Shown here: in pieces, positions 2,640 to 22,758 of the stretch
Layout of the letters: every line of letters begins with the position of its first letter
Numbering within the stretch: the stretch's first letter is position 1
DNA from: a virus
Virus genome (UHGV): UHGV-2149192
Length of the DNA: 22,758 nt
Strand: one strand, 5' to 3'
The notes under the pieces: generated by a model
The model's database searches: none
Told to the model about the DNA's origin: nothing
Seen by the model: the letters and a program-made list of their open reading frames with translations, nothing else
Made by a program: the position numbers and the translations under genes

Positions 2640-2926
2640 GCTGATTCCCCTTTCTCTGCTCTCTCCTGTCGGAACATCACTATCATCAGGTCGCCTTTTG
2701 TCGCTATCCTGGCTGTTGTACCTGGTTCAATGCGGCTAAGCTCAAATGCGTCATAGAACGCTTCTAATGCCTTCTGGCGTAGTTCCTGTTTGCGCCGTTT
2801 TTTCCACTGTTTTAGGAAAATGGAACCCAGCCATCGCCATGTACGGGACATGATGTAAAGCCAACCGAGAAGTGCCAGGCCGACATTCAGGGCCGTTTCT
2901 ATGGTTAGTTGTGAGTCAGTTGCCAT
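2636..2926 (-). CDS. Small predicted membrane protein (96 aa)
   Basis: ATG at 2924-2926; hydrophobic segment ALNVGLALLGWLYIMS followed by a basic stretch (KQWKKRRKQELRQK). Confidence 0.4.
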   Translation of the reverse strand: MATDSQLTIETALNVGLALLGWLYIMSRTWRWLGSIFLKQWKKRRKQELRQKALEAFYDAFELSRIEPGTTARIATKGDLMIVMFRQERAEKGESA

Positions 2927-3206
2927 TTCTTACCTGTTTAAGTAACTGGTTGAACATAACACTTAGGGGATTGCTGTATCCAAACGGCAGATTGTTTACG
3001 CAGTACAGAATCATTTTGTTTTTTTCTCCAGTTCGTACTATTAACCCATTCCACAATAACCGTGATAATTCATTACTGATAGAAGTTGCGCTTCTTCCAA
3101 GTGCGAGGGATATATCTTCTCTACTGCAATCTGGATTTTCCTGGATATACTCGATAACGGTCATGTGGTCCCTTTTACTTAATATCTGTTTCGGATTGCA
3201 TGCCAT
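2916..3206 (-). CDS. Small winged-helix-like DNA-binding protein (start uncertain: 3206 or internal ATG at 3162-3164)
   Basis: Segment EDISLALGRSATSISNELSRLLWNGLIVRTGEK resembles a winged-helix/HTH; an alternative start at 3164 has an AAGGGA Shine-Dalgarno and avoids overlap with the upstream gene. Confidence 0.4.
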   Translation of the reverse strand: MACNPKQILSKRDHMTVIEYIQENPDCSREDISLALGRSATSISNELSRLLWNGLIVRTGEKNKMILYCVNNLPFGYSNPLSVMFNQLLKQVRNGN

Positions 3207-5164: not shown

Positions 5165-5243
5165 TGATACCTCAGTTACGAACTTTGTTTTATGGTAACT
5201 AAGGTATCAAGGTGTGGCAAGTGATTTTTGATACTTTGGTTTC
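5165..5243. promoter_or_regulatory. Left operator cluster (OL-like): three GATAC-containing operator-like repeats
   Basis: Sites near 5165-5181 (gatacctcagttac), 5194-5212 (ggtaactaaggtatcaagg) and 5228-5243 (ttgatactttgg) share the core with the sites on the other side of cI. Confidence 0.5.
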
Positions 5244-5263
5244 TTTTTGTGTTTTGTGTCTGG

Positions 5264-5920
5264 TCAGAAAATATCCCACCTGGCATCAACCACAACACCT
5301 ACTATTTCGCAATCATTGTCCATTTCTATGATTGGATATTGTGGATTAAGGGGCTTTAGAAACGCCTTTCCCATGTCAGAAATATATTTTTTGAATGTTG
5401 CTTCATTGGTAGATTTTTTTCTGGCGATGACGTAACACCCTGAAAAAACTTCTTTATCTGGGTTGACAAGGATCGACATTCCTTCAGGAAATGTTATTCC
5501 TACGGGCGAAGTCATTGAGTCTCCGTGCACTTCCAGCCAGAACCCCCTCTCACCAGCGTATTTTACAGAATGCCTCCAATTATCCTGATCATACATGTTG
5601 TAGTCATCACCAGAAGTTGCGAATAATCCTGCCTGAACCCAGTTAATTACAGGGTAAGAGTGTGCTGTGTCTCTCTGTGGGCAGCTCTTAACATTATTTT
5701 CCCAATGCTTATCTTTTTCATCTCCGTTCTGAAGCCACTGCGGTGAACACCGCAGTGCAGCTGCAACTTTAAAAAGGGTGTCACCGTTGAAACTTTTTGT
5801 AAGGCCTTGCTCGGCTTTACTGATTGCAACTCTGGTGATCCCAGCTTTTTTAGCCAACGCATCTTGTGTTAACCCAGCTTTTTGCCGTGCGTTGATGAGA
5901 CGTTCACCTAAAGACTTCAT
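5264..5920 (-). CDS. cI: CI-type prophage repressor (N-terminal HTH plus C-terminal S24 LexA-like autopeptidase)
   Basis: Start verified at ATG 5918-5920 with GGAG upstream (ORF-track start at 5995 is an upstream in-frame Met). N-terminus KSLGERLINARQKAGLTQDALAKKAGITRVAISKAEQG is an HTH; C-terminal domain has the GDSM serine motif and a downstream lysine (ARKK), typical of LexA/CI self-cleaving repressors. Confidence 0.85.
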   Translation of the reverse strand: MKSLGERLINARQKAGLTQDALAKKAGITRVAISKAEQGLTKSFNGDTLFKVAAALRCSPQWLQNGDEKDKHWENNVKSCPQRDTAHSYPVINWVQAGLFATSGDDYNMYDQDNWRHSVKYAGERGFWLEVHGDSMTSPVGITFPEGMSILVNPDKEVFSGCYVIARKKSTNEATFKKYISDMGKAFLKPLNPQYPIIEMDNDCEIVGVVVDARWDIF

Positions 5921-6031: not shown

Positions 6032-6241
6032 ATGACCCTTTATGAAATATTAAAAATTCAATTTAAAACCAATGCCGCTATTGGTCGCAGGTTCCCAAAG
6101 AAAGGAAGGCCTCGTGGCAGTCAAGGTGTTGGAAAGTGGAAAACGCGAGGTGTTCCGGAGGATGTTGCCATTCTTTGTCATTTGGATCCGAGCATTCCAT
6201 ATACACACCCAAGCCTAGCGCACACGGAAGATGGGAAGTGA
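6032..6241 (+). CDS. Small basic protein in the cro position (69 aa); function unclear
   Basis: First rightward ORF after the OR-like cluster; Arg/Lys-rich (GRRFPKKGRPRGSQGVGKWKTRG) but no clear HTH and only a weak Shine-Dalgarno. Confidence 0.25.
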   Translation: MTLYEILKIQFKTNAAIGRRFPKKGRPRGSQGVGKWKTRGVPEDVAILCHLDPSIPYTHPSLAHTEDGK

Positions 6242-6311
6242 TGGTGGTGATATGAGCGAAAAAATAACTATTAAATACGATGGGACAACCATTTCGATTG
6301 CCCCGATCACA

Positions 6312-6605
6312 TTAGCGTTCGCTGAGAAGTTGTTGGTAAGCCTTAAAGGATGCGAACTGCATTCTACCTTCGGCATTGATTCCAATGCCTTCGCTTGTAC
6401 ACCAAGCGATGAACTCGGCTGTATCCGCTTCAACTTTAATAACTCGTTGCCCGCCTCTTTCGACACGCTTAATCAATTTTTCAGCGTCGTGTTTCCACTC
6501 GGTGTAACTGTCGGAGAGCACATCAGCATCAGTAAAAATATTTTTGAGCTCATGATACTGAATCGCATCGCGAAACCAGAATAAACCAACGGCCTGAACT
6601 TTCAT
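6312..6605 (-). CDS. Hypothetical protein (97 aa) encoded opposite to the rightward early genes
   Basis: ATG at 6603-6605 preceded by AAGGAGG with 7-nt spacing (strong RBS); no motif recognised. Confidence 0.5.
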   Translation of the reverse strand: MKVQAVGLFWFRDAIQYHELKNIFTDADVLSDSYTEWKHDAEKLIKRVERGGQRVIKVEADTAEFIAWCTSEGIGINAEGRMQFASFKAYQQLLSER

Positions 6606-6718
6606 GTCGAACCTCCTTTGGTTCTTTTGTTTATAGGGATCAAAAGGATAACTGAAGGAAGGTTCGGCACCAATAAGTACGAATGTGCGGAATCTTAAAA
6701 GAATTTATCCGTAAGGAG

Positions 6719-7432
6719 ATGGCAGTGAACACCGTAATTTTTAACGGCAAAGCATCCATGACCAGCCTTGAAATCGCAGAGTTGGTGGGCAGCCAACACA
6801 AAGATGTTAAGCGCAGCATTGAAAGGCTCATGGATAAGGGGATTATTCGAAGTGCGCCAATGGCGAATTTCGAAATAATCAACAACTTAGGATTAAAACG
6901 AAATGTAGGTGCTTACATCTTCGAAGGCGAACAAGGTAAGCGCGACAGCATCATTGTCGTCGCACAGCTCTGTCCTGAATTCACAGCTCGCCTGGTAGAT
7001 CGCTGGCGCGAACTGGAAGAACAGATCCGTAAGCCAATGAGCGAAATCGAAATGGTTGCCGCGATGGCTCTTGAAGCCGTTCGCCAACAGAAACGGATCA
7101 CTCAGGTGGAAGAAAAAGTCAGCCACGTTGCTGAAACAGTCGAGCAAATTAAAAAGGGCACTATTCGTGAGGGCTATGCCGGATATCGCCAACTGAAAGC
7201 AAAAACCGGTTTGTCAGATGATAAATGCCGCAATCTGGTGAACGCCTATCAAATTCCTACAGACACACATGAGTTCATGACGCCGGACGGATTGTTGTCA
7301 CGTCGCGCAATTGTTGCTGTGGAACCGTTTATGGCTGCTTTTTATCGGGTTATGGAGGAAGCAGAACCGCGAGGGACTCGCTGGTATCACCCGAAAATGG
7401 GGTTATTTCAGGTTATTGGTTGGCAGCGATGA
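6719..7432 (+). CDS. Rha-family phage regulatory protein (antirepressor-like), paralog 1
   Basis: N-terminal region TVIFNGKASMTSLEIAELVGSQHKDVKRSIERLMDKGII matches the Rha (Phage_pRha) N-terminal pattern. Start is ATG 6719 or GTG 6725; TAAGGAG at 6712-6718 is better spaced for 6725. Confidence 0.55.
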   Translation: MAVNTVIFNGKASMTSLEIAELVGSQHKDVKRSIERLMDKGIIRSAPMANFEIINNLGLKRNVGAYIFEGEQGKRDSIIVVAQLCPEFTARLVDRWRELEEQIRKPMSEIEMVAAMALEAVRQQKRITQVEEKVSHVAETVEQIKKGTIREGYAGYRQLKAKTGLSDDKCRNLVNAYQIPTDTHEFMTPDGLLSRRAIVAVEPFMAAFYRVMEEAEPRGTRWYHPKMGLFQVIGWQR

Positions 7433-7562
7433 AAAAAAGCCGGGAGTAACCCGGCTCACTCAACATCAATAACGGGGAGCTGTTTCGCATAAAACGGCTC
7501 CGAAACATCCAAGAACAGTTCTAAAGATATCAGCAGCTATATGATCATTTCAAGACCAAATA

Positions 7563-7591
7563 TTGATTCTGCAATTTCGGGACGTTACACT
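7563..7591 (+). promoter_or_regulatory. Sigma70-like promoter (TTGATT-17 nt-TACACT) inside a 60-bp block repeated at 8219-8247
   Basis: Hexamers at 7563-7568 and 7586-7591 with a 17-nt spacer; the surrounding 60 bp differ from the second copy by one mismatch. Confidence 0.45.
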
Positions 7592-7654
7592 GTCTCCGCA
7601 CCTTATAAAGCGGGTGCCGGGGGTCGCAGCCCGGAATTGCATACGGCGATATAC

Positions 7655-7674
7655 GACGCGCCAGCGTCTTTTTT
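7655..7674 (+). terminator. Intrinsic terminator-like hairpin plus T-tract in the leader of Rha paralog 2
   Basis: GACGC-gcca-GCGTC stem-loop followed by TTTTTT, about 65 nt downstream of the promoter-like element. Confidence 0.45.
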
Positions 7675-7840
7675 ATCGTCCGCGCTCACGCACGCCAGAA
7701 TTATGGTGGGCTGGGCAGGGGAGCCGAAAGGCTCGCCGGTTTCCGTATGCGCCGGTACTGCGAACCCTGTTCAGTCTGCCACCAGTGAGTTTCGCAGCTC
7801 CGGTGGTGGAAGTTATCCATTGCATACGGAGGCTGCCATC

Positions 7841-8203
7841 ATGGCTACAGTCCCAACTTCCCCATTCCTCAAAATTGAAGTTGTCAACGGCAAGGCCGTT
7901 ATTTTCTCCCTGCATGTTGCCTGCCACTTTAAGCGCATGCACCAGAACATCGTCGACAAAATCGAGTATCTGAACTGCTCACGCGAGTTTTTTACCCGCA
8001 ATTTCATACCGGGTACTTATCACATCTACGGTGACTCCCTGCGTGGTTATTACATCACCCTTGATGGTCTGATGATGCTTCAGCTTGGGTTAAGTCTGCG
8101 CACAATGCGGTACTACGAGAGCTGTATTGAAGCATTCCATGAGGCTGAAACCGTCCAGGGTCACTCCGCGTTCCGTCGTAATCAACGGGAGGTGCACCTA
8201 TGA
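7841..8203 (+). CDS. Rha-family phage regulatory protein, paralog 2 (short form; possible N-terminal extension from ATG 7541)
   Basis: ATG 7841 preceded by GGAGG (7827-7831); translation from here begins MATVPTSPFLKIEVVNGKAVIFSLHVACHFKRMHQNIVDKI, the Rha N-terminal pattern. The upstream 300 nt is open in frame but also open in other frames and contains a promoter and terminator. Confidence 0.5.
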   Translation: MATVPTSPFLKIEVVNGKAVIFSLHVACHFKRMHQNIVDKIEYLNCSREFFTRNFIPGTYHIYGDSLRGYYITLDGLMMLQLGLSLRTMRYYESCIEAFHEAETVQGHSAFRRNQREVHL

Positions 8204-8218
8204 TCCGCCACCAGCATA

Positions 8219-8247
8219 TTGATTCTGCAATTTCGGGACGTTACACT
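8219..8247 (+). promoter_or_regulatory. Second copy of the promoter-like element (TTGATT-17 nt-TACACT)
   Basis: Near-identical 60-bp block to 7563-7620. Confidence 0.45.
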
Positions 8248-8308
8248 GTCTCTGCACCTTATAAAGCGGGTGCCGGGCGTGGAAACCCGAAATTCAATAT
8301 AGAGCACA

Positions 8309-8329
8309 ACCGCGCTCATGCGGTTTTTT
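8309..8329 (+). terminator. Intrinsic terminator-like hairpin plus T-tract in the leader of Rha paralog 3
   Basis: ACCGC-gctcat-GCGGT followed by TTTTTT, about 60 nt after the promoter-like element. Confidence 0.45.
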
Positions 8330-8499
8330 CGTGTCATGAGCATCGTTACGCCCAAATTATGGTGGGGCGTGCAGGGCCAACTTCGGTTGGGCCGGGTTCT
8401 ATGTTGACCGGTATTTCCACCCCTGTACGTCTCACCACCTATATGGTCGTGGAAAGCCTTGGTGGTGAGTTCATTGAATTCAACATAGGGGCTGTCACC

Positions 8500-9051
8500 A
8501 TGACTACTCTCCCAACCCAATCTCACCCTGAAATCACGATTATCAATGGTCGCGTTGTCACCACATCTCTTGCAGTAGCTAATTACTTTACTAAACGGCA
8601 TGAGCGGGTTTTAGATAGAATTAGAAACCTCGAATGTTCCGCTGAATTTACTGAACACAATTTTGTGTTAAGTGAATACACCGACGCATCAGGCCGCAAA
8701 CTACCTTGCTATCAAATCACCCGCGATGGCTTCGCGTTCCTTGCCATGGGCTTCACTGGTAAACGTGCTGCCCGGTTCAAAGAGGCATACATCAACGCCT
8801 TTAACCTGATGGAGAAGAGTTTATCAGGTGCCGATACGTCTGATATGTCAGCTGTCGCACGAAACGCCAGAGGCGTATACCTGCATTTGCGTGAAATCCA
8901 TCAAATCTGGACAAGCCAGCTTTATCCAATGCTTAAGGCCGTTGAATCTCCGCTGGCTAGCAAACTGTACGACCGTGTTGGTGATGCTGTTTTTGGCGCT
9001 GCACTTGTTGATTCCAGGCTGAATGGTTCTGACAAGGAGGTTCGCCCATGA
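8500..9051 (+). CDS. Rha-family phage regulatory protein, paralog 3 (possible longer form from ATG 8200)
   Basis: From ATG 8500: MTTLPTQSHPEITIINGRVVTTSLAVANYFTKRHERVLDRIRNLECSAEF... is a clear Rha domain. An alternative start at 8200 has GGGAGG upstream and an ATGA overlap with the previous stop, so the long form cannot be excluded. Confidence 0.55.
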   Translation: MTTLPTQSHPEITIINGRVVTTSLAVANYFTKRHERVLDRIRNLECSAEFTEHNFVLSEYTDASGRKLPCYQITRDGFAFLAMGFTGKRAARFKEAYINAFNLMEKSLSGADTSDMSAVARNARGVYLHLREIHQIWTSQLYPMLKAVESPLASKLYDRVGDAVFGAALVDSRLNGSDKEVRP

Positions 9052-12704: not shown

Positions 12705-12947
12705 ATGACTTTTACCCCTGAGCAATTACGTAAACAGGCACAGGAAATGTTGCGGCAGGCGGAACAACTGGAAAAAACAGGTGTAACAAAAGATGCCATT
12801 CGTCGGGATATGGTGCCAGCGCTCAGGGAACTGATGCAGGCAAAACACCGTGCACAAAAAGCAGTGGATGAGCTGGTGGATTGTGTGGCAGAGCTGGAAA
12901 CCAGAGTTGGTAAGTTTGAAAAACTGGTGCAGGAGGTACTGCGCTGA
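12705..12947 (+). CDS. Small coiled-coil hypothetical protein (start ATG 12705 or TTG 12690)
   Basis: ORF track; helical, charged sequence; start ambiguous. Confidence 0.4.
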   Translation: MTFTPEQLRKQAQEMLRQAEQLEKTGVTKDAIRRDMVPALRELMQAKHRAQKAVDELVDCVAELETRVGKFEKLVQEVLR

Positions 12948-13315
12948 TGCGTGATATGTACGAAGTTTTAGATCGTTGGGGGGCCTGGGCTGCAGCAGAT
13001 AACAGTGGTGTGGACTGGCAGCCGATAGCAGCAGGCTTCAAGGGGCTTTTACCACACGGTAAAAAGTCACGTCTCCAGTGTGATGATGACGAAGGTATCA
13101 TGATAGACGGTTGTGTGGCTCGGTTGCGAAAGTATAAACCCGAAGAGTATGAGTTGATCATTGCTCACTTTGTTATTGGTATCTCATTACGCGCTATTGC
13201 TAAAAAACGGAAATGTTCAGATGGAACAATACGGAAAGAGATGCAAACAGCAATGGGGTTTATTGATGGCTGCTTGTCATTTTTCATTTACTACAATGAC
13301 TTAAGTTCTATGTAA
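12947..13315 (+). CDS. Putative late antiterminator Q (small Q family, QuuD-like)
   Basis: 122 aa, MRDMYEVLDRWGAWAAADNSGVDWQPIAAGFKG...; size, Cys pattern and position (after replication genes, before lysis genes) fit the small Q family as I recall it from E. coli DLP12 QuuD. Not verified by search. Confidence 0.5.
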   Translation: MRDMYEVLDRWGAWAAADNSGVDWQPIAAGFKGLLPHGKKSRLQCDDDEGIMIDGCVARLRKYKPEEYELIIAHFVIGISLRAIAKKRKCSDGTIRKEMQTAMGFIDGCLSFFIYYNDLSSM

Positions 13316-13378: not shown

Positions 13379-14419
13379 GTGAACATTCAGGCAGTAGACA
13401 TTTTTTGTGGTGCGGGGGGCTTAACTTTTGGGCTAAAAAAAGCCGGGATTGAGGTTTCTCATGGTATTGATATTGATGAATCCTGCCGTTTTGCTATTGA
13501 GAGCAATAATCCTTTAACGCAGTTCATTAATCAGTCAGTTACAGAACTGCAATCCTGCGATGTGTCTGCTATGTTCAAGGAAGGAAATATTAGATTGCTT
13601 GCTGGATGTGCTCCTTGCCAACCGTTTTCCAAGTATCGTAATCCAAATAGCCGTAAAGACGATACAAAGTGGCGTTTGTTATATGAGTTTCAAAGGCTTG
13701 TAAGTGATGTAATGCCAGAGCTTGTGACGATGGAGAATGTTCCTCAACTTAGAAACCATAAGGTTTTTGAAGGGTTTGTTAGTGCATTAAAGACTCTTGG
13801 ATATCATTTGTGGTACGACGTTGTAAGATGTTCTGAGTATGGCTTACCTCAAAATAGACGTAGATTAATTCTAATTGGTTCCCAATTGGGGCCGATCAGC
13901 CTTGATCAAAAAAAAGTTAGCCGTAAAGTTACTGTTAAGGATGCTATTGGTAGGTTGCCAAAAGTAGGGGCAGGTGAGAAGCTGGAAAGCGATCCCTTGC
14001 ATCGTTCGCCTAAATTGATGGATATCAATCTTAAACGAATCATGCATTCTTTACCTGGTGGTACGTGGGATGACTGGCCTGAAGAAATTAGAGCAGACTG
14101 TCATAAAAAGAATTCAGGTGCTACCTATAAAAGCGTTTATGGACGGATGGTTTGGGACGATACTAGCCCTACGATAACTACCCAGTGTTATGGATATGGA
14201 AATGGACGATTTGGCCATCCTGAGCAAAATCGCGCCATAACTTTGCGTGAAGCTGCGATTTTGCAATCCTTTCCAATGGATTATAAATTCCTTGACAAGG
14301 AGACGCCTTTTTCATTCCAAAAATTGGGGACAATGATTGGAAATGCTGTTCCCCCTATAATTGGTCAGATAATAGGGGAAACATTTATCAGACATGTTGA
14401 GGGGATAAATACCCGTTAG
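13379..14419 (+). CDS. DNA (cytosine-5)-methyltransferase
   Basis: Canonical m5C methyltransferase motifs in order: I DIFCGAGGLTFG (FxGxG), IV PCQPFS (catalytic Cys), VI ENV, VIII QNRRR, X GNAVPP. GTG start 13379 with GGAG 7 nt upstream. Lies in AT-rich DNA. Confidence 0.85.
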   Translation: MNIQAVDIFCGAGGLTFGLKKAGIEVSHGIDIDESCRFAIESNNPLTQFINQSVTELQSCDVSAMFKEGNIRLLAGCAPCQPFSKYRNPNSRKDDTKWRLLYEFQRLVSDVMPELVTMENVPQLRNHKVFEGFVSALKTLGYHLWYDVVRCSEYGLPQNRRRLILIGSQLGPISLDQKKVSRKVTVKDAIGRLPKVGAGEKLESDPLHRSPKLMDINLKRIMHSLPGGTWDDWPEEIRADCHKKNSGATYKSVYGRMVWDDTSPTITTQCYGYGNGRFGHPEQNRAITLREAAILQSFPMDYKFLDKETPFSFQKLGTMIGNAVPPIIGQIIGETFIRHVEGINTR

Positions 14420-15077
14420 AGGTAATATAATTTTCTGTTGAGTTGATTAATAAACGCAAATATAGATCAATTCTTTCTGACCTCGATTTGACTTCTTCTA
14501 AAGGGTCTATTTGACCTTTTTTAGAAAAGCTGGTACTTCCATGTGCCAGCTCATTTCTGATATCTTTAAGTAAATCTAAGTCAACACCATTTCTACACTC
14601 TGGTGAGTTTGCAACAGTTATTCCGTAAGCTTGTGTTATTTTGTGCAATACAGACTTGCAAACATTACCATTGAATTCTTTACGTATGTTTAATGAGGCT
14701 GAAATGATCCTTTTAGATATATCGGAACCAATTTTTTGATAAAGAGATTTTCCCGATTCATTATCTGAAATGATACGGTGCAAGATATTTACTTGGAATT
14801 TCTCCCTGAGTGATGCGTAATTTACTTCATTATCTTGCAAATGGTCATAAATTGACTCAATGCATCCTCTGGCAGTGTTTTCAACCTGATTGTACAGCAT
14901 CATGTGCACGGATGATTTTAAAATGTTAACCCTAAGGGTATTTGATTCTATTTCATCTTTATGCGTTTGCTGATCTAACTGCTGAGTCTGAGCCTCTAAA
15001 GATGACGCAAGAGAAAGCAATTCCATAATATCTCTTGCTCTTTCTTCGTATTCATCTCTTAAATCAATCAAACTCAT
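14388..15077 (-). CDS. HEPN-like protein (R-x4-H motif), downstream partner of the DUF262 gene
   Basis: ATG 15075-15077 with AGGAA upstream, 2 nt after the DUF262 stop (operon-coupled). Mostly helical, charged sequence with RNELAH near the C-terminus, matching the HEPN R-x(4-6)-H signature. Inference only. Confidence 0.5.
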   Translation of the reverse strand: MSLIDLRDEYEERARDIMELLSLASSLEAQTQQLDQQTHKDEIESNTLRVNILKSSVHMMLYNQVENTARGCIESIYDHLQDNEVNYASLREKFQVNILHRIISDNESGKSLYQKIGSDISKRIISASLNIRKEFNGNVCKSVLHKITQAYGITVANSPECRNGVDLDLLKDIRNELAHGSTSFSKKGQIDPLEEVKSRSERIDLYLRLLINSTENYITSNGYLSPQHV

Positions 15078-15079
15078 AG

Positions 15080-16237
15080 TTACATTCCTAATAATTTATC
15101 TTTGACATAAAATATTCTGTTTTTGAGTTGGCTGGTGTTGTTGGCACTATCAGCAGTAACTATGGTTTCAAATTCCTCCCCAAACAGCCAGTCTCCTACA
15201 GGAATAACCGGAGCCTGTAGATGTGGATTGGCTTTTAAGGCAAGAGCAGTTCCCACTGCTATGGCTTCGTATCTAGCACGGGGGGTGGTTTTGCTTGTTG
15301 GTGTCTTTTTAAACCCCATAGGGAAATGAGCATCTACAAAAGCAAGCATGCTTTCAAAATCATGTTTAAATTTGTCTACATCTTGTTGTGTGACCCTTTC
15401 GGCCTGAACATTAAGATAATTGTCAATAAAAGGAGCGACATAACCCTTATAATTTTCTAAATCATTTAAGTATGCAAAAAATCTCAAAACTAACTCACGA
15501 TGATCGCCATTCGAACGTTTCCGATCTGATAATGGAGCTAGACTAGCGAAAAGTGGATTTGTTGAGCAAGGAGTCACAACATCCCTATAGAAAATTGAAG
15601 TGGCCGCATCTGAACCATGTCTAACCTCCATCGCTTCCAGTCTCTTAACACCTGAATTTATTCTTTCGAATAAATCTCTTCTATGCTGCTCCTCAACATC
15701 ACCTTTCAATTCAATAAATCTTAGTGATGCCCTTAAAAATCGCCTCTGGCGGCTAGCCAAAAGATCTGAAAATTTGAAGCCCTCTAAACTTTTGAGTTCT
15801 TTTAAGTCTTTCAATTCAAACTGATTGTTCCAAAAGTAGTAAATTGAGCGAATCCTTTGTGAACCGTCAATAATTTCTACACGACCATCCAACTCAGGAT
15901 CTTCATTAAATACGTCGGAGATGTAGAGGTACGGGATTGGAAAATCTAATAATATACTTTCGATGAATCGAGAGGCTGTTTTGATATCCCATTTGTAATC
16001 GCGTTGATAATCAGGAATAAAAAGTTCGTTTTTGTCAGTTTCAAGATTATTGCCATACTTTTGTACAATTAATTCAACGGTCCATTCACGTACGTTGTAT
16101 CCAATATTTCTCTGAGCAAGCCTAATCTCGTTGTCGGCAGAAGTGACCAAGGCTGCAATTTCAGCTTTTTTTCTATTTTTCGCGTTTTCATCTTGAATCT
16201 GAGCAAGCTCTTCTTTGAGTTCTTTGAGTGTGGTCAT
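15080..16237 (-). CDS. DUF262 (ParB-like / GmrSD-N-terminal-like) domain protein
   Basis: Both DUF262 hallmarks are present: FIPDYQRDYKW and IIDGSQRIRSI (DGQQR-type). ATG 16235-16237 with AAGGAA upstream. No DUF1524/HNH-type C-terminal motif recognised. Confidence 0.75.
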   Translation of the reverse strand: MTTLKELKEELAQIQDENAKNRKKAEIAALVTSADNEIRLAQRNIGYNVREWTVELIVQKYGNNLETDKNELFIPDYQRDYKWDIKTASRFIESILLDFPIPYLYISDVFNEDPELDGRVEIIDGSQRIRSIYYFWNNQFELKDLKELKSLEGFKFSDLLASRQRRFLRASLRFIELKGDVEEQHRRDLFERINSGVKRLEAMEVRHGSDAATSIFYRDVVTPCSTNPLFASLAPLSDRKRSNGDHRELVLRFFAYLNDLENYKGYVAPFIDNYLNVQAERVTQQDVDKFKHDFESMLAFVDAHFPMGFKKTPTSKTTPRARYEAIAVGTALALKANPHLQAPVIPVGDWLFGEEFETIVTADSANNTSQLKNRIFYVKDKLLGM

Positions 16238-16347
16238 ATCACTGTTCCTTTAATTGGAGTTGGAAATAGATTGTAAGAAAACTATAACGCGTACGCAAAA
16301 AATATTATATCGTGTTAAGAGTGGTTACTACGCCACACAGCTTAAAC

Positions 16348-16367
16348 CCGCCGCCAGGCGGTTTTTT
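16348..16367 (+). terminator. Short GC hairpin plus T6 (terminator-like) in the intergenic region upstream of the DUF262 operon
   Basis: CCGCC-gcca-GGCGG followed by TTTTTT. Confidence 0.3.
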
Positions 16368-16490
16368 GTGTCCGAAAAACGGCGCAGTACGTTAAACGTG
16401 CTGGTGGTTGCGAATACCTGTCTTTCAGCTTGCTGGCTTTTTCGACAAGAGTTATTGGTGTGTCACGTTAACCGGAAAAGGGAAAAAGAC

Positions 16491-16654
16491 ATGCTAAAAC
16501 AGCAGGATATGACAGAAACCGCCAGAGTAGTGTTTAATGAATTAAGCGTTACCGAACCGGCGACAGTCGGGGAGATAGCGCAGAATACTTACCTTTCACG
16601 CGAACGCTGCCAGTTAATACTGACCCAGCTGGTTATGGCGGGTCTGGCAGACTA
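16491..16654 (+). CDS. Small HTH-like protein, truncated in this assembly by the N-run
   Basis: ATG 16491 (AAGGGA upstream); MLKQQDMTETARVVFNELSVTEPATVGEIAQNTYLSRERCQLILTQLVMAGLAD then runs into N. The ORF-track entry 16254..16835 is an artefact of a TTG start and translation through the N-run. Confidence 0.4.
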
Positions 16655-16750
16655 NNNNNNNNNNNNNNNNNNNNNNNNNNNNNNNNNNNNNNNNNNNNNN
16701 NNNNNNNNNNNNNNNNNNNNNNNNNNNNNNNNNNNNNNNNNNNNNNNNNN
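16655..16750. other. Run of 96 N (assembly gap or masked bases)
   Basis: Directly visible; content and true length unknown. Confidence 1.
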
Positions 16751-16827
16751 GGGTTCACAAGCAAACCTCAGGCCCACTGCTTTGCGCAAAAGCAGAATGA
16801 GCCTATCAGAGACAGGCTTAATGATCC

Positions 16828-17877
16828 ATGCTTAATACTGTAAAAATATCCAGTTGTGAGTTAATCAACGCCGACTGCCTGGAATTTATCCGGTCGTTAC
16901 CCGAAAATTCTGTTGACCTGATAGTCACGGACCCGCCGTACTTTAAAGTGAAGCCTGAGGGCTGGGATAACCAGTGGAAGGGCGACGATGATTACCTGAA
17001 GTGGCTGGACCAGTGTCTGGCGCAGTTCTGGCGGGTGCTGAAACCTGCCGGAAGTCTTTACCTGTTCTGTGGTCATCGCCTGGCATCTGATATCGAAATC
17101 ATGATGCGTGAACGCTTCAGTGTGCTGAACCATATTATCTGGGCGAAGCCGTCCGGACGCTGGAACGGATGCAACAAGGAAAGCCTGCGGGCGTATTTCC
17201 CCGCCACAGAGCGCATTCTGTTCGCGGAACATTATCAGGGGCCGTATCGTCCGAAAGATGCCGGGTATGCGGCGAAGGGCAGTGCACTGAAACAGCATGT
17301 GATGGCCCCGCTGATTTCTTACTTTCGTGATGCGCGCGCGGCCCTGGGGATAACGGCAAAACAGATTGCAGATGTCACAGGAAAGAAAAACATGGTGTCG
17401 CACTGGTTCAGTGCCAGTCAGTGGCAGCTACCGAACGAAAGCGATTATCTGAAATTACAGTCGCTGTTTGCCCGGGTGGCAGAAGAGAAACATCAGCGCG
17501 GTGAACTGGAAAAGCCCCACCACCAGCTGGTGGATACGTATACGTCACTGAACCGGCAGTATGTGGAGCTGCAGAGTGAATATAAGCATCTGCGGCGGTA
17601 TTTTGGTGTGACGGCGCAGGTGCCGTACACGGATGTATGGACACATAAACCGGTGCAGTTCTATCCCGGGAAACATCCGTGCGAAAAACCGGCAGAAATG
17701 CTGCAGCAGATAATCAGCGCAAGCAGTCGTCCGGGTGACCTGGTTGCAGATTTTTTTATGGGCTCAGGTTCAACGGTAAAAGCGGCACTGGCGCTCGGGC
17801 GTCGTGCGATTGGCGTTGAACTGGAGACCGGACGTTTTGAGCAGACAGTCAGGGAAGTTCAGGATTTAATCGTTTGA
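16828..17877 (+). CDS. Beta-class amino-methyltransferase (N6-adenine or N4-cytosine DNA MTase)
   Basis: Motif IV DPPY (LIVTDPPYF) near the N-terminus and the AdoMet-binding FFMGSGST near the C-terminus (IV-then-I order of beta-class N6_N4 MTases); no adjacent endonuclease candidate. Confidence 0.8.
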   Translation: MLNTVKISSCELINADCLEFIRSLPENSVDLIVTDPPYFKVKPEGWDNQWKGDDDYLKWLDQCLAQFWRVLKPAGSLYLFCGHRLASDIEIMMRERFSVLNHIIWAKPSGRWNGCNKESLRAYFPATERILFAEHYQGPYRPKDAGYAAKGSALKQHVMAPLISYFRDARAALGITAKQIADVTGKKNMVSHWFSASQWQLPNESDYLKLQSLFARVAEEKHQRGELEKPHHQLVDTYTSLNRQYVELQSEYKHLRRYFGVTAQVPYTDVWTHKPVQFYPGKHPCEKPAEMLQQIISASSRPGDLVADFFMGSGSTVKAALALGRRAIGVELETGRFEQTVREVQDLIV

Positions 17878-17926
17878 AACGGATGAGATTGCAGAATTAA
17901 TTACGCACCATTATTATTCTGCTCCC

Positions 17927-18002
17927 GGCCCTTTAGCTCAGTGGTGAGAGCGAGCGACTCATAATCGCCAGGTCGCTGGTTCAAATCCAGCAAGGGCCAC
18001 CA
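17927..18002 (+). tRNA. tRNA-Ile2 (anticodon CAU, ileX/ileZ-like)
   Basis: GGCCCTTTAGCTCAGTGGTGAGAGCGAGCGACTCATAATCGCCAGGTCGCTGGTTCAAATCCAGCAAGGGCCACCA: perfect 7-bp acceptor stem, anticodon loop CTCATAA, T-loop TTCAAAT, encoded CCA; closely resembles E. coli ileX as I recall it. Confidence 0.8.
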
Positions 18003-18009
18003 TCACATA

Positions 18010-18086
18010 CCGCCATTAGCTCATCAGGAAAGAGCGCCAGCCTTCGAAGCTGGTTGCGCGGAGTTCGGGTCCCCGAAGGCGGTCCA
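18010..18086 (+). tRNA. tRNA-Arg-like (anticodon UCG) with imperfect stems; possibly degenerate
   Basis: Cloverleaf can be drawn with anticodon loop CTTCGAA (UCG) and encoded CCA, but the acceptor stem has an A-A mismatch, the T-stem has an A-C mismatch, and the T-loop is TTCGGGT. Confidence 0.45.
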
Positions 18087-18099
18087 TTATCTGTATCCT

Positions 18100-18176
18100 G
18101 CGTTGTTAGCTCAGCCGGACAGAGCAATTGCCTTCTAAGCAATCGGTCACTGGTTCGAATCCAGTACAACGCGCCA
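18100..18176 (+). tRNA. tRNA-Arg (anticodon UCU)
   Basis: GCGTTGTTAGCTCAGCCGGACAGAGCAATTGCCTTCTAAGCAATCGGTCACTGGTTCGAATCCAGTACAACGCGCCA: perfect acceptor stem, anticodon loop CTTCTAA, T-loop TTCGAAT, CCA encoded. Confidence 0.8.
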
Positions 18177-18191
18177 CACTTATTTTCCCTG

Positions 18192-18215
18192 GCTCGCTTT
18201 TGCGGGCTTTTTTTT
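18192..18215 (+). terminator. Rho-independent terminator after the tRNA cluster
   Basis: GCTCGC-tttt-GCGGGC hairpin followed by eight T. Confidence 0.6.
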
Positions 18216-18411
18216 AAATGTCTCACAATTCAGGCGGTTGACTGTTGTCTGGTTTGCGGGGAGTTTGTTAAAAGAAACTGGCATGGTGAATCCCCCTGTG
18301 CGGAGGGGCAATCAGCGAGTAGGTATATGGGATAATCGCGGATTCAGGTGCTGGTACTGAATTCACCGGGAGGCACCCGGCACCATGCAATGGCACATAG
18401 CGCCACTCTCC

Positions 18412-18446
18412 AGCCCCTCTCCGGAGGGGCTGTTTATATTGATTTT
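18412..18446 (+). terminator. Second terminator-like hairpin (AGCCCCTC-tccg-GAGGGGCT) with T-rich tail
   Basis: Perfect 8-bp GC-rich stem followed by gtttatattgatttt; a related hairpin CCCCT-gtgcgg-AGGGG lies near 18285-18300. Confidence 0.45.
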
Positions 18447-18466
18447 GTCAGATGTGAGTAAACTCC

Positions 18467-18802
18467 TTATGGACTTTGTTGTTTTAGTCCATAAGGACAT
18501 ATTTGCAGAGTGCAACGGTTATTAAAGCATTCATTCAATACGTTATCTGTATTTGTAGGGCATTCCTGGCTGTTTTTGATTAAATTCCAGAATGTTTTAT
18601 TGAATGGTACTACGTTGTAAATGGTTACAGGTAGCACTTTGTTATTGAGCATGATGCCTGTGTGAGTCAGTGTAAATATACTTTCAGGAGGTAAGAAAGC
18701 ATCCGATTGATACCAGATTATTAATTTTATTTTACTCCATATGACTGAAAAAGATATTCCGCATGATGGCTGGATAACTGTATCAATCACAATCCACTTC
18801 AT
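18467..18802 (-). CDS. Hypothetical protein (111 aa) in an AT-rich island at the position where Stx phages carry toxin genes
   Basis: ATG 18800-18802 with AAGGAA at 6-nt spacing; C-terminal Cys-rich segment ([24 protein letters not shown]); sits in an AT-rich block between tRNAs and lysis genes. No similarity recognised. Confidence 0.35.
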
Positions 18803-19062
18803 TTGGTTTCCTTGTTTATGCCTTGCTGGTGATGTCCTGAAAAGTATAAATGATATTTTTGAATGTAAACCATAGAGCAGAATTATTTTTCTGATGTTGT
18901 TTATTGTTTATTTAAATGCAGGGTGGTTTATATCTCGTCTTGTAGTTTATCCATGCATATCTGCTTGATAATCAGGTTTTTATTTAAGGTATAGTTTTGT
19001 GTTTTTTCTGTATTACATGTCAGGTATTTTAAAGAATTATTTTTCAGATAGTGGAAAGAACC

Positions 19063-19251
19063 ATGGCATTTAAACACTATGATGTTGTCAGGGCGGCGCC
19101 GCCGTCAGATCTTGCGGAAAAGCTGACACATAAACTGAAAGAGGGCTGGCAGCCGTTTGGTAGTCCGGTGGCCATAACCCCTTATACCCTGATGCAGGCG
19201 ATTGCAGCAGAAGGTGATGTGGTGGTCAGTGGTGCAACTGAGCCGGAGTGA
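19063..19251 (+). CDS. Small conserved phage protein (possibly DUF1737-like) upstream of the lysis cassette
   Basis: ATG 19063 (ORF track begins at in-frame GTG 19051); MAFKHYDVVRAAPPSDLAEKLTHKLKEGWQPFGSPVAI... resembles small proteins found next to lysis genes in lambdoid prophages (from memory). Confidence 0.45.
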   Translation: MAFKHYDVVRAAPPSDLAEKLTHKLKEGWQPFGSPVAITPYTLMQAIAAEGDVVVSGATEPE

Positions 19252-19494
19252 TACTACGTCATCGTACTGGCCCGGCATTCCAGGCCATAAAAGACAGTCT
19301 GGCAGTGGGACTAAATGCACTGACGCTGACGGATATTACCAAAAATGCAACGTATGGCGTTGAGATAGAAAGTCTGGCGCTGGAGATAAATGCACCGGCA
19401 TCATCATAAAAAGTGAGCCAGTCAAATGGAAGGTATCGTTAAACTCACCGGTAGTGTCAGTGGGTCGTCTGAGACGCTTGCATGAGTTATCAGA

Positions 19495-19526
19495 GCCATC
19501 AGTAGTTAACTGGTGGCTTTTTTATT
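19495..19526 (+). terminator. Strong intrinsic terminator immediately upstream of the holin (tR'-like position)
   Basis: GCCATCAG-tagttaa-CTGGTGGC (8-bp stem with one G-U) followed by TTTTTTATT; about 30 nt upstream of the holin RBS. Confidence 0.55.
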
Positions 19527-19558
19527 GTTGTCAGCTTCCGGATAACGGGAGACGGGGT

Positions 19559-19774
19559 ATGGACCAGATGGAAAAAATCACAACAGGTGTGTCATACACC
19601 ACGTCAGCGGTGGGAACGGGCTACTGGTTCCTGCAGTTGCTGGACAGGGTTTCCCCGTCTCAGTGGGCGGCAATAGGCGTGCTGGGAAGTCTGCTGTTTG
19701 GGCTGCTGACATATCTGACTAACCTGTATTTCAAAATCAGAGAGGACCGTCGTAAGGCGGCACGGGGAGAGTAA
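19559..19774 (+). CDS. Class II holin, phage-21 S-like pinholin (dual start MDQM)
   Basis: [71 protein letters not shown] closely resembles the S21 pinholin as I recall it; two TM segments; Met1/Met4 dual-start arrangement; GGGAGACGGGG RBS. Confidence 0.85.
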
Positions 19775-19778
19775 TTCA

Positions 19779-20123
19779 ATGACTCAAAACTATGAACTGA
19801 TTGTGAAAGGGATCCGCAATTTTGAGAATACAGTTACGGTAACTTTAGCGTTACGGGACAAAAAACGCTTTGACGGTGAAATTTTAGACCTGGACATCTC
19901 GCTGGACCGTGTTGAAGGTGCCGCGCTGGAGTTTTATGAGGCAGCAGCCAGAAGGAGCATCAGACAGGTCTTCCTGGATGTTGCTGCCGGGTTATGTGAA
20001 GGGGATGAGCAGTCACCGGAAAAGCGCCCCATAATTTTAGAGGCGCAGGGTGTGTGGATAACCTACAAAGGAAAACTGCCGGGAAGAATTACTGGTTCAC
20101 TGAAGACTCCGCCGAAATGGTAA
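19779..20123 (+). CDS. Hypothetical protein (114 aa) inserted between holin and endolysin
   Basis: ATG 19789-19791 (ORF-track 19779 is an in-frame GTG) with GGGGAGAG 9 nt upstream; no motif recognised. Confidence 0.5.
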   Translation: MTQNYELIVKGIRNFENTVTVTLALRDKKRFDGEILDLDISLDRVEGAALEFYEAAARRSIRQVFLDVAAGLCEGDEQSPEKRPIILEAQGVWITYKGKLPGRITGSLKTPPKW

Positions 20124-20361
20124 TTTCACCAGCATATTTTTCTTCCAGTAATACCGCCAGCCACTTGAAAGAATTTTGTTGTTGCTGGGACCATTTGGGG
20201 TTGAGTGATTCAAGCTGGAGCGATGCCAGTGTTGGTTGCATTTGTTCCTTGGGAATTGAGAATGCCAGATATGAAAATGCGACAGTAAGGGCATTTACAT
20301 CATCCCGAAGCTTGGAAATGCAGTCGAGCAACTCCTGTAGAGAAATGGTGCTATTGTCCAT
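20089..20361 (-). CDS. Hypothetical protein (90 aa), antisense to the lysis cassette
   Basis: ATG 20359-20361 with GAGAGGA at 6-7 nt spacing; 3' end overlaps the 3' end of the 19779-20123 gene by about 35 nt (convergent). Confidence 0.45.
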   Translation of the reverse strand: MDNSTISLQELLDCISKLRDDVNALTVAFSYLAFSIPKEQMQPTLASLQLESLNPKWSQQQQNSFKWLAVLLEEKYAGEITISAESSVNQ

Positions 20362-20466
20362 AAACAATCCTCTCTATTGTATTTAACTATTCCTTGCCTG
20401 ATTCAACAGGCCGGGACAGATAAACATATCCAGGGTTCAGAAACCGATAAATCCTGATAAATATCC

Positions 20467-21000
20467 ATGAACGCAAAAATCAGATACGGCCTGTCGGCTG
20501 CCGTTCTGGCACTGATTGCCGTCGGTGCGCCTGCGCCTGATATTCTCGACCAGTTTCTGGATGAAAAAGAAGGTAACCACACAACGGCATACCGCGATGG
20601 TTCCGGTATATGGACCATCTGTCGTGGTGCCACAATGGTGGATGGTAAGCCCGTCATACCGGGAATGAGGCTGTCGAAGGAAAAATGCGACCAGGTTAAC
20701 GCTATTGAACGTGATAAGGCGCTGGCATGGGTGGAGCGCAATATTAAAGTACCACTGACCGAACCACAGAAAGCGGGTATAGCGTCATTCTGTCCCTATA
20801 ACATTGGCCCCGGTAAGTGTTTCCCGTCGACGTTTTATAAGCGGCTGAATGCCGGTGATCGTAAGGGCGCATGCGAGGCGATTCGCTGGTGGATAAAAGA
20901 TGGTGGGCGCGATTGCCGCATACGTTCAAATAACTGCTATGGACAGGTTATTCGTCGTGACCAGGAAAGCGCATTAGCCTGTTGGGGGATAGATCAGTGA
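20467..21000 (+). CDS. R: SAR endolysin (T4-lysozyme-like family, signal-anchor-release type)
   Basis: N-terminal weakly hydrophobic Gly/Ala-rich SAR segment ([18 protein letters not shown]) followed by the lysozyme catalytic region ([22 protein letters not shown]); pairs with the pinholin as in phage 21. Confidence 0.85.
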
Positions 21001-21464
21001 GCAGAGTCGCAGCGATTATTTATACTCTGGTTATCTGCACCATCGTCTGCCTGTCATGGGCTGTTAATCATTACCGCGATAACGCCATTACCTACAAAGC
21101 CCAGCGCGACAAAAATGTCAGAGAACTGAAGCTGGCGAACGCGGCAATTACTGACATGCAGATGCGTCAGCGTGATGTTGCTGCGCTCGATGCAAAATAC
21201 ACGAAGGAGTTAGCTGATGCGAAAGCTGAAAATGATGCTCTTCTGCGGAAGCTTGATAATGGTGGCAGGGTGCTCGTCAAAGGAAAATGCCCTGTGCCAT
21301 CCTCAGCCGAAACCTCCAGCGCCTCCGGCATGGGCAATGATGCCACCGTCGAACTCTCTCCAGTTGCTGGACGAAACGTTCTCGATATCCGGGACGGAAT
21401 TATCCGCGACCAAACAGCACTGAGAACGCTTCAGGAATACATTAGGACGCAATGCCTTCGATGA
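20997..21464 (+). CDS. Rz: Rz i-spanin
   Basis: From GTG 20997 (overlapping the endolysin stop): [79 protein letters not shown]... is nearly identical to my recollection of lambda Rz over the N-terminal half. Confidence 0.8.
21217..21423 (+). CDS. Rz1: Rz1 o-spanin lipoprotein, embedded in the +1 frame of Rz
   Basis: [21 protein letters not shown]... has a lipobox (VAGC) and a proline-rich stretch ([11 protein letters not shown]); AAGGAG 7 nt upstream of ATG 21217. Confidence 0.7.
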
Positions 21465-21639
21465 TAGCAATAATTTTACTCATCATCCTTCACATCTGGC
21501 TCTGTAGACAGGGTGGTGATCACTTCTGGAGTAAATCCAGATTAAACATCTCATTGCTGATGCTTGATATTGAGCATCTGGCGCGCAGTAAGGGGCTGCG
21601 TTGAGATAAGAGCCAGTTCATTACAAATACCAGGATTTA

Positions 21640-21664
21640 GCCTCGCATTCGCGGGGCTTTTTAT
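21640..21664 (+). terminator. Intrinsic terminator-like hairpin after the lysis cassette
   Basis: GCCTCGC-attc-GCGGGGC (7-bp stem with one G-U) followed by TTTTTAT. Confidence 0.5.
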
Positions 21665-21806
21665 ATCTGAATTTCACAGCGCATCTCACGCGCATATTAA
21701 CGAGAGCCTTTCAGTAAGCGAGCCTGAGAAATGCCGTTATAGGTGGCGACCTCTCTCGGGCGGCTTTTCTGTGAGACAGGCTCACTTTCTAAAAGGTAAA
21801 GACGCT

Positions 21807-22331
21807 ATGAATAATCATTCAGTTATTCCAGCCTTCGACTTCCGAGAAATGGTGCAAGCCAAAAACGGAGAGGTCGTTACCACATCCAGAAAAATTGCCA
21901 AGTACTTCGGCAAGCGACACGGTGATGTTCTCAGGAAAATCGAGCAGGTTAAGGCTGATTGCTCGCGTGAGTTTAGCCAACGCAATTTTGCGTCGGCTGA
22001 TTATATCGATGAGCAGGGCAAGGTTCGCCCGATGTACAGCCTGACGAAAGATGGCTGGATCATGGTTGTGATGGGGTTCACCGGGAAAGCTGCTGCGGCA
22101 ATCAAGGAGAGCTATATCGCAGCATTCAACTGGATGGCAGAGCAACTGAGCCGCCGCATGGCAATTGGCGAAGAAATGCAGCACCGCTACGCCACCAAAG
22201 AAACACGCTCAAAGCTGAAAGGTACGATCGGCAGTCGGTTAATGAACGAACGGAAGAAAGAGAAGCGTGTCCTGGCTGTCGAGCATGAATACATCTTGCA
22301 GGTGACACAGCCTGAACTGCTGATTAATTGA
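21807..22331 (+). CDS. Rha-family phage regulatory protein, paralog 4
   Basis: From ATG 21807 (AAGG upstream): MNNHSVIPAFDFREMVQAKNGEVVTTSRKIAKYFGKRHGDVLRKIEQVKADCSREFSQRNF...LTKDGWIMVVMGFTGKAAAA is a clear Rha domain, parallel to the 8500-9051 paralog. Confidence 0.7.
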   Translation: MNNHSVIPAFDFREMVQAKNGEVVTTSRKIAKYFGKRHGDVLRKIEQVKADCSREFSQRNFASADYIDEQGKVRPMYSLTKDGWIMVVMGFTGKAAAAIKESYIAAFNWMAEQLSRRMAIGEEMQHRYATKETRSKLKGTIGSRLMNERKKEKRVLAVEHEYILQVTQPELLIN

Positions 22332-22758
22332 AGATGTCATTACAAAGCCTATCTACGGGGGGATTGATAATGGCTTATACCCTGCACGGGATAACTTAAC
22401 TGATATCCCTTTTAACGGATAAAGGTATTCAAGCCTGACACATCATGCGCTGTATCGTCGCCGTATTCCCGCATTAACCATGACCGTAGCCCGACGGGGA
22501 ATTCCTTCTGCGTGAGTGTGCGGGAATAATCAAAAACGATGCACACCGGGTTATTAACGCGTCAACTGAACGCGGGGTTGCTCTTCATGTCAGCCAGTCC
22601 GGTGCAGGGGTAGAAGAAACCGGACGTTATGGTTTAGTGTGGAAACATTTGTGATGTGCTCTGTATGTTTTCAGTAAAGAGTAATGAATTATCAAAGGTA
22701 TAGTAATATCTTTTTTGTTCGTGGATATTTGTAACCCACCGAAAAACTCCTGCTTTAG

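Follow-up and report, generated by a model that had tools for sequence, protein, structure and literature searches.

The RssB anti-adaptor gene iraL in the late-region accessory cluster of a Shiga toxin phage-type Escherichia coli prophage

The iraL gene of uropathogenic Escherichia coli CFT073 was described by Hryckowian et al. (mBio 2014; PMC4045071), who showed that its product raises both the level and the stability of RpoS in unstressed exponential growth. Binding of IraL to RssB was demonstrated by two-hybrid and pulldown assays, and IraL contacts RssB's N-terminal domain only, unlike IraM (PMC4045071). The iraL promoter is of the sigma-70 type, with its start determined by rapid amplification of cDNA 5' ends (5'-RACE; PMC4045071). 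IraL protein was also found by proteomics in CFT073, and it was raised in CFT073 delta-fur (PMC7157518). Here we describe the same gene in the virus genome UHGV-2149192, a stretch of 22,758 nucleotides (nt) that is called the window below and to which all positions refer unless a fetched locus is named. We have little doubt that the region around the gene is the late-region accessory cluster of a lambdoid, Shiga toxin (Stx) phage-type prophage of E. coli, made up of three tRNA genes, an empty stx slot, the small RNA STnc100, and iraL. The identities of these elements and their colinearity with Stx2 phages and with the potB prophage of CFT073 are established in the present analysis. Every element is already catalogued and carries a label from automatic annotation, and iraL was already characterized experimentally in the work published in 2014. 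The gene and the sequences that belong to it are located as follows.

18467–18802, minus strand: iraL, 111 amino acids (aa), an RssB anti-adaptor of the IraM/IraL/RssC family (by identity to CFT073 IraL and NCBIfam NF007393)
18803–18869, minus strand: 5' untranslated region and promoter of iraL (published 5'-RACE mapped onto the window)
18870–19050, minus strand: AT-rich upstream regulatory region of iraL, GC content ~0.30, identical to CFT073
18464–18497, minus strand: perfect 12-bp hairpin over the final codons of iraL together with its stop codon (minus-strand fold of 18380–18500, z −6.2)

The original prediction, which was made from the sequence alone, reported a 111-aa minus-strand open reading frame (ORF) with a good ribosome-binding site and a Cys-rich C-terminus, and recognized no similarity for it. 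The description is accurate, since the ORF has an ATG start, the ribosome-binding site AAGGAA at 18808–18813 (5–10 nt upstream of the start), and four Cys in its last 31 residues. The protein is far from being without relatives, as it is identical at 111 of 111 residues to IraL of CFT073 (WP_000871291.1), while it shares 62% identity with IraM of K-12. The bar for calling the gene iraL was at least 95% identity across the entire coding region; in pairwise alignment the coding DNA proved identical to that of CFT073 throughout, and over 18211–19500, promoter included, the DNA agrees with the potB prophage of CFT073 at 99.8% of positions. The NCBIfam model NF007393, "anti-adapter protein IraM," aligns over residues 1–110 and scores 162 bits, where its curated cutoff is 121 (E 4.7e-48), residues 1–78 match chain A of PDB entry 8TWD, IraM(1-78) in the IraM-RssB complex (E 9e-32), and there are 20 homologous protein clusters.

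The published 5'-RACE sequence, ACATCACCAGCAAGGCATAAACAAGGAAACCA, maps exactly to 18804–18835, which places the transcription start at 18835 on the minus strand with a leader of 33 nt, behind a −10 element TATACT at 18843–18848 and a −35-like element TTTACA at 18864–18869. For the promoter and the DNA upstream of it, the bar was set at 96% identity or more together with this mapped start, and the upstream 215 bp proved to be identical to CFT073. Our sigma-70 scan of the window picked up neither this published promoter nor any for the tRNA genes. The transcription start, RssB binding, and RpoS stabilization are established in published work on an identical sequence. The hairpin at the end of the gene encodes the QQSP extension, which is missing from K-12 IraM, and is not followed by a U-tract; iraL transcripts may run antisense into STnc100, the terminator hairpin of which starts ~35 nt past the iraL stop codon.

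As originally predicted, the gene sits in an AT-rich block at about 18450–19050, with a GC content of 0.30–0.34 in the GC profile against ~0.52 on either side; a pair of shorter ORFs there (44 aa, plus strand; 49 aa, minus strand) found no support. The block is a lysogenic-conversion moron carrying a leftward gene, because it has its own sigma-70 promoter, a published 5'-RACE start, expression in growing lysogens, and an action on host RpoS, and the proposal that it is conversion cargo is thereby borne out. Among 5426 complete genomes of E. coli, 1446 carry the iraL gene with its promoter at 90% identity or more, and megablast found the whole block from the tRNAs to iraL (at least 80% coverage) in 1193 of the 5426. 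Genomes with the block are labeled tRNA-Ile, tRNA-Arg, tRNA-Arg, and "anti-adapter protein IraM" by the NCBI Prokaryotic Genome Annotation Pipeline (PGAP). What RefSeq calls "IraM" at this locus is the IraL allele, and its behavior is not that of IraM from K-12.

Judging from the published work, IraL would bind the N-terminal receiver domain of RssB and sequester or remodel RssB, which would then fail to hand RpoS to the ClpXP protease, so that RpoS would accumulate. Transcription of iraL runs leftward from a promoter of its own, opposite to late transcription, and RpoS that is stable in exponential growth would leave the lysogen primed for the general stress response. This mechanism presumably applies to the present host as well, in which case carriage of the prophage probably raises exponential-phase RpoS, with relevance to how uropathogenic and other E. 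coli withstand stress. Of the contact residues that the structural study lists for IraM, the five facing the N-terminal domain of the RssB protein (I4, I6, W22, K26, and I42) are all kept in IraL, while those facing its C-terminal domain and linker show the changes T13S, H63N, and I64V, a pattern that would fit the published binding to the N-terminal domain only.

The tail of the protein carries the motif CP-x9-10-C-x4-5-C-x4-CP(Y/F)G at residues 81–102 (18497–18562, minus strand). C81, C92, C97, C102, and the sequence ICPYG do not vary among 12 members of the family with identities as low as 54%, and a similar CP...C...C...CPFG pattern occurs in a Salmonella sequence at ~35% identity. It may be a metal-binding or redox motif. 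The structural study of IraM cut the protein from residue 79 on and called the tail less conserved and flexible (bioRxiv 10.1101/2023.01.07.523045).

The elements to the left of iraL, together with the point at which stx would be expected, are the following.

17889–17917, plus strand: candidate sigma-70 promoter of the tRNA cluster, TTGCAG, 17-nt spacer, TATTAT (sequence inspection)
17927–18002, plus strand: ileZ, tRNA-Ile2, anticodon CAU (ARAGORN; Rfam 72.5 bits, E 2e-14)
18010–18086, plus strand: argN, tRNA-Arg, anticodon UCG (ARAGORN; Rfam 43.4 bits, E 2e-6)
18100–18176, plus strand: argO, tRNA-Arg, anticodon UCU, reading AGA/AGG (ARAGORN; Rfam 70.1 bits, E 1e-13)
18191–18216, plus strand: intrinsic terminator after argO, a 7-bp stem and then a T run (terminator scan)
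18214–18219, no strand: empty stx slot (pairwise BLAST junctions and junction sequences)
18252–18441, plus strand: STnc100, Rfam RF02076 (132.4 bits against a threshold of 47, full model 1–206)
18411–18432, plus strand: terminator hairpin of STnc100 (terminator scan)

Three tRNA genes had been claimed, in the order and with the anticodons of the Stx-phage cluster ileZ-argN-argO. ARAGORN finds exactly three, all on the plus strand and its sole calls in the whole window, and the Rfam tRNA covariance model, with a threshold of 29 bits, calls every one of them; the gene names are taken from the annotation of AP012536.1. The ileZ gene is identical at 76 of 76 positions to ileZ of Stx2a_1447 and to the tRNA-Ile of CFT073, and is 100% conserved across all five related copies compared, and argO is identical at 77 of 77 positions to the gene so named in Stx2a_1447. 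The CAU tRNA is of the Ile2 type and not a Met tRNA, and is predicted to be lysidine-modified and to read AUA after conversion of C34. It is close to K-12 ileX (with paired stem substitutions), aligns poorly with metU, and retains C4-G69 and C5-G68, which we take to be TilS determinants. The variable member of the cluster is argN, with 70–74 of 77 positions identical to the other copies. Its acceptor stem contains an A-A mismatch and its T stem a further one, and its Rfam score is the lowest among the five copies compared (others 45.5–56.2 bits); this copy may be decaying.

The TTGCAG/TATTAT pair upstream, a weak candidate for the promoter of the cluster, has 8 of 12 consensus positions, falls below the threshold of the scanner, and ends 9 nt before ileZ; homology to CFT073 and to phage vB_EcoS-640R1 starts at 17888. 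At the other end, the scan reports the terminator after argO at 18191–18208, and its hairpin also precedes stx2A in Stx2a_1447. Phage tRNAs of this kind would serve codons rare in E. coli (AUA, CGA/CGG, and AGA/AGG). Codons read by these tRNAs are frequent in the AT-rich cargo and amount to 6.5–7.4 per 100 in the HEPN and DUF262 genes further upstream. A literature search on ileZ, argN, and argO together found no study, and a broader one yielded nothing of use.

Most of the 365 phage records that match 17600–19400 are Stx-converting phages. The backbone, which the original prediction called Stx-phage-like, is indeed colinear with the Stx2a phages over 16285–19282 at 70–94% identity; against Stx2a_1447 and Stx2_EH1910, identity is 88–94% through the methylase and the tRNAs and ~70–72% through the STnc100 and iraL region. 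The boundaries of the slots were defined from pairwise BLAST junctions against these two phages and the CFT073 potB prophage. The sole large difference from the two phages is a 1335-bp stx2AB segment, located after the argO terminator and before STnc100, the absence of which from the window accords with the earlier statement that no ORF for a Stx A or B subunit is present. The ORF list of 16000–22758 holds nothing that matches the annotated stx2A or stx2B, on which count the element does not rank as a Stx-converting phage. The stx-less junction of the window is that of the stx-negative phage PhiR49_2, and close to this point, with a junction that maps to 18188/18211, an unrelated insert of 643 bp is found in CFT073; what is inserted at the stx slot varies. 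The CFT073 insert (22568–23209 of the fetched locus) includes a small DUF3927 ORF.

The slot of iraL is a different one. Stx2_EH1910 carries stx2AB and then an annotated iraM-family gene of 107 aa, 73% identical to IraL, and the iraL interval also aligns in Stx2a_1447, unannotated, between stx2B and the next gene. A translated search matched IraL to 41 phage records at 60–80% identity, nearly all Stx2a or Stx2c and often unannotated. Toxin and anti-adaptor thus coexist in adjacent slots, and the part of the original prediction that put the AT-rich block at the position equivalent to stx, instead of the toxin genes, is wrong: the stx2AB slot at 18214/18219 is empty, and iraL occupies a separate slot downstream of STnc100. 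The paralogue of the Stx2 phages is 107 aa long, 72–74% identical to IraL and 65% to IraM (5208–5531, minus strand, of the fetched Stx2_EH1910 locus; about 6200–6530, minus strand, of that of Stx2a_1447). Of the 5426 complete genomes of E. coli, 236 contain it, and O157:H7 strains stand out among the matches listed. Literature searches on anti-adaptors and on IraM with Shiga toxin phage returned no experimental study of this paralogue, which is apparently unstudied.

STnc100, which like the argO terminator did not figure in the original prediction, has a fold energy of −74.6 kcal/mol (z −2.3) and is found at the equivalent relative position in five related loci. A preprint relates STnc100 to PasD. 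Phage vB_EcoS-640R1 has two tandem STnc100 copies (6466–6659 and 6935–7123 of the fetched locus) and ileZ as its only tRNA. In STEC388 and CFT073, PGAP annotates a pseudogene ("hypothetical protein, missing C-terminus") equivalent to 18268–18396 on the minus strand, antisense over STnc100; this call is probably an annotation artefact.

Other explanations of the region were weighed against this account. That the gene is an IraM ortholog of the K-12 kind, which PhoP would induce under Mg2+ starvation and whose product would bind both domains of RssB, is very unlikely, even though it falls under the same family model, bears the name IraM in PGAP and RefSeq, and has a PhoP-box-like site with one mismatch at 18898–18914, 63–79 nt upstream of the start. 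Its identity is 62% to K-12 IraM against 100% to IraL, IraL works in log phase without stress and, of the RssB domains, binds the N-terminal one only, and the contact residues for the RssB C-terminal domain and linker differ. A search for PhoP boxes (KGTTTA-N5-KGTTTA) gave 11 in the window against 6.6 ± 2.7 expected, a number within chance, and was rejected as evidence for IraM-like regulation. It is highly improbable that the AT-rich block is cargo that replaced stx, which would make the element a former Stx phage whose toxin was swapped for a conversion gene. The backbone shared with the Stx2a phages and the missing stx2AB segment would suit such an exchange, but the stx and iraL slots are different sites; Stx2_EH1910 holds stx2AB followed by the iraM-family gene, the same interval aligns in Stx2a_1447, 41 Stx2 phage records match IraL, and PhiR49_2, with the same stx-less junction, is without iraL too. 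Besides, a clean junction does not distinguish loss of stx from stx never having been present.

The idea of a PmrD-like connector acting on another response regulator, e.g., PmrA, draws on the PmrD-like core fold of IraM (bioRxiv 10.1101/2023.01.07.523045). It also draws on the family: homologues of the protein carry a precomputed match to PF11183. PF11183 is presumably the PmrD family. We consider this idea scarcely credible, since IraL was shown to bind RssB and to alter RpoS stability (PMC4045071), and the Pfam scan of the window protein gave no match at E ≤ 0.01. The probability that the ORF arose by chance in an AT-rich spacer, or that the tRNAs are false calls, is negligible: the gene is short and AT-rich and the Pfam scan assigns no family to it, yet the NCBIfam match, the 20 homologous clusters, and the family-invariant motifs argue for a real protein, and a transcript start, protein detection, and a phenotype are published for the identical sequence. 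The original prediction was to fall with an ORF lacking homologs and expression, or with tRNAs that covariance models did not call; homologs and expression are on record, and all three tRNAs pass the covariance model. The readings as a spurious ORF, a toxin replacement, and a PmrD connector were all rejected on this evidence.

Some points do weigh against our account of an accessory cluster with a working IraL. The function of IraL in the source strain is transferred by sequence identity, and the Pfam scan found no family for the 111-aa protein at E ≤ 0.01. AlphaFold2 with an 11-sequence alignment produced the expected strands and a helix at 69–77 in what is a poor model (mean predicted local distance difference test score 49, predicted template modeling score 0.35), because of which the fold of IraL rests on its sequence similarity to 8TWD. 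The argN copy is weak, two of its stem pairs being broken, and may be nonfunctional. STnc100 is a small RNA of prophages that is already catalogued, and the sigma-70 scan found no convincing promoter for it in the window. Two steps are putative: the tRNAs would help to translate AT-rich cargo such as iraL, 6 of whose 13 Ile codons are ATA, and late transcription dependent on Q would read antisense through iraL in lytic growth.

A wider reading would join these parts: IraM-family anti-adaptors would have a fixed slot as cargo in late regions of the Stx type, in the order tRNAs, [stx], STnc100, the iraL-like gene, and nanS-p, and the whole would work as a unit. In it, ileZ would enable ATA-rich translation, the gene would be on in the lysogen and silenced by antisense late transcription on induction, and the Cys motif would be a metal or redox sensor controlling stability. 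We hold this combination to be rather unlikely as a whole. It would have a consequence for enterohemorrhagic E. coli (EHEC): EHEC strains with high log-phase RpoS lack iraL (PMC4045071), and, if the fixed-slot reading were true, the ~73%-identical paralogue downstream of stx2 would explain that phenotype.

The neighborhood of the cluster includes these further genes.

13379–14419, plus strand: C5 cytosine methylase, a member of a defence-like island
14388–15077, minus strand: HEPN MAE_28990-type protein, a member of the same island
15080–16237, minus strand: DUF262/GmrSD_N protein (PADLOC NsnA 155 bits, PD-T4-2_A 93 bits)
19063–19251, plus strand: DUF1737 ORF, 66 aa, the first gene of the rightward late/lysis block (Pfam DUF1737, E 4e-17)

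The DUF1737 ORF is probably what is left of the 5' part of nanS-p, a gene for a sialate O-acetylesterase: in STEC388 and CFT073, PGAP marks its equivalent as a pseudogene that lacks the C-terminus, other genomes have a carbohydrate esterase of the SASA family annotated at the corresponding match end, and yjhS/nanS follows the iraM-like gene in Stx2 phages. It is followed by a P21-type holin, DUF1327, lysozyme, and Rz. To the left, the antiterminator Q gene (12947–13315) lies just upstream of the defence-like island (13379–16237), whose methylase/HEPN/DUF262 set also occurs in other E. coli genomes, including ST131. Beyond the island, a short stretch at 16260–16370 (plus strand) ends in a strong terminator (16348–16361 and a T run) and has the appearance of a late promoter with its terminator behind it; the island sets it ~3 kb away from the Q gene, and it is conserved in Stx2a phages (16285–16654 of the window against 2685–3044 of the fetched Stx2a_1447 locus). 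A small winged-helix ORF that starts at 16491 is interrupted by 96 N (masked) at 16655–16750, and the N6-adenine methylase gene is located just downstream (16828–17877). Further to the left, the isrK and C4 antisense RNA pair occurs twice in tandem (7598–7786 and 8254–8442, plus strand; period 656 bp), each copy at the start of an Ash/Rha-domain ORF (7541–8203 and 8200–9051), which looks like a duplicated immI-like anti-repressor module.

Among the known systems compared, PmrD, a connector protein of the PhoP/PmrA systems, is not known to have the four-Cys C-terminal tail. IraM shares the beta-barrel core fold of PmrD (bioRxiv 10.1101/2023.01.07.523045), while the partner of IraL is a different one, RssB. 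K-12 IraM (YcgW), encoded beside e14, shares with IraL the family NF007393, the length class, the four-Cys C-terminus, and the contacts with the RssB N-terminal domain, whereas it is 62% identical, lacks the QQSP tail, and is reported to contact both RssB domains. No tRNAs or STnc100 are annotated near K-12 iraM in its icdC/e14 context. K-12 IraM is induced by PhoP under Mg2+ starvation, in agreement with a line of an abstract.

The ileZ-argN-argO cluster of Stx phages shares order, anticodons, and spacing with that of the window, with ileZ and argO 100% identical in Stx2a_1447, whereas in the window no stx follows the cluster and argN has 7 differences and two broken stem pairs. STnc100 lies 75 nt downstream of the stx2 operon in Stx2 phages (PMC12370729); it has the same position in the window, where, stx being absent, it adjoins the tRNA terminator directly. 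The IraM-family gene of Stx2a and Stx2c phages (2851, 1717, Stx2a_WGPS2, and others) has the same slot and orientation as iraL in both loci that were inspected; it lies between STnc100 and nanS-p, downstream of the former and upstream of the latter, and sits there behind stx2AB.

The iraL locus of CFT073 is also among the closest systems. Our comparison identifies iraL as a prophage moron in a Stx-type late region, where the paper on IraL says only "genomic island" (PMC4045071). The two loci share the order tRNA-Ile, tRNA-Arg, tRNA-Arg, STnc100, iraL, DUF1737 remnant, and holin, while CFT073 differs in the 643-bp insert, which separates argO from STnc100, and in having an IS200 upstream of the tRNAs, where the window has the N6-adenine methylase.

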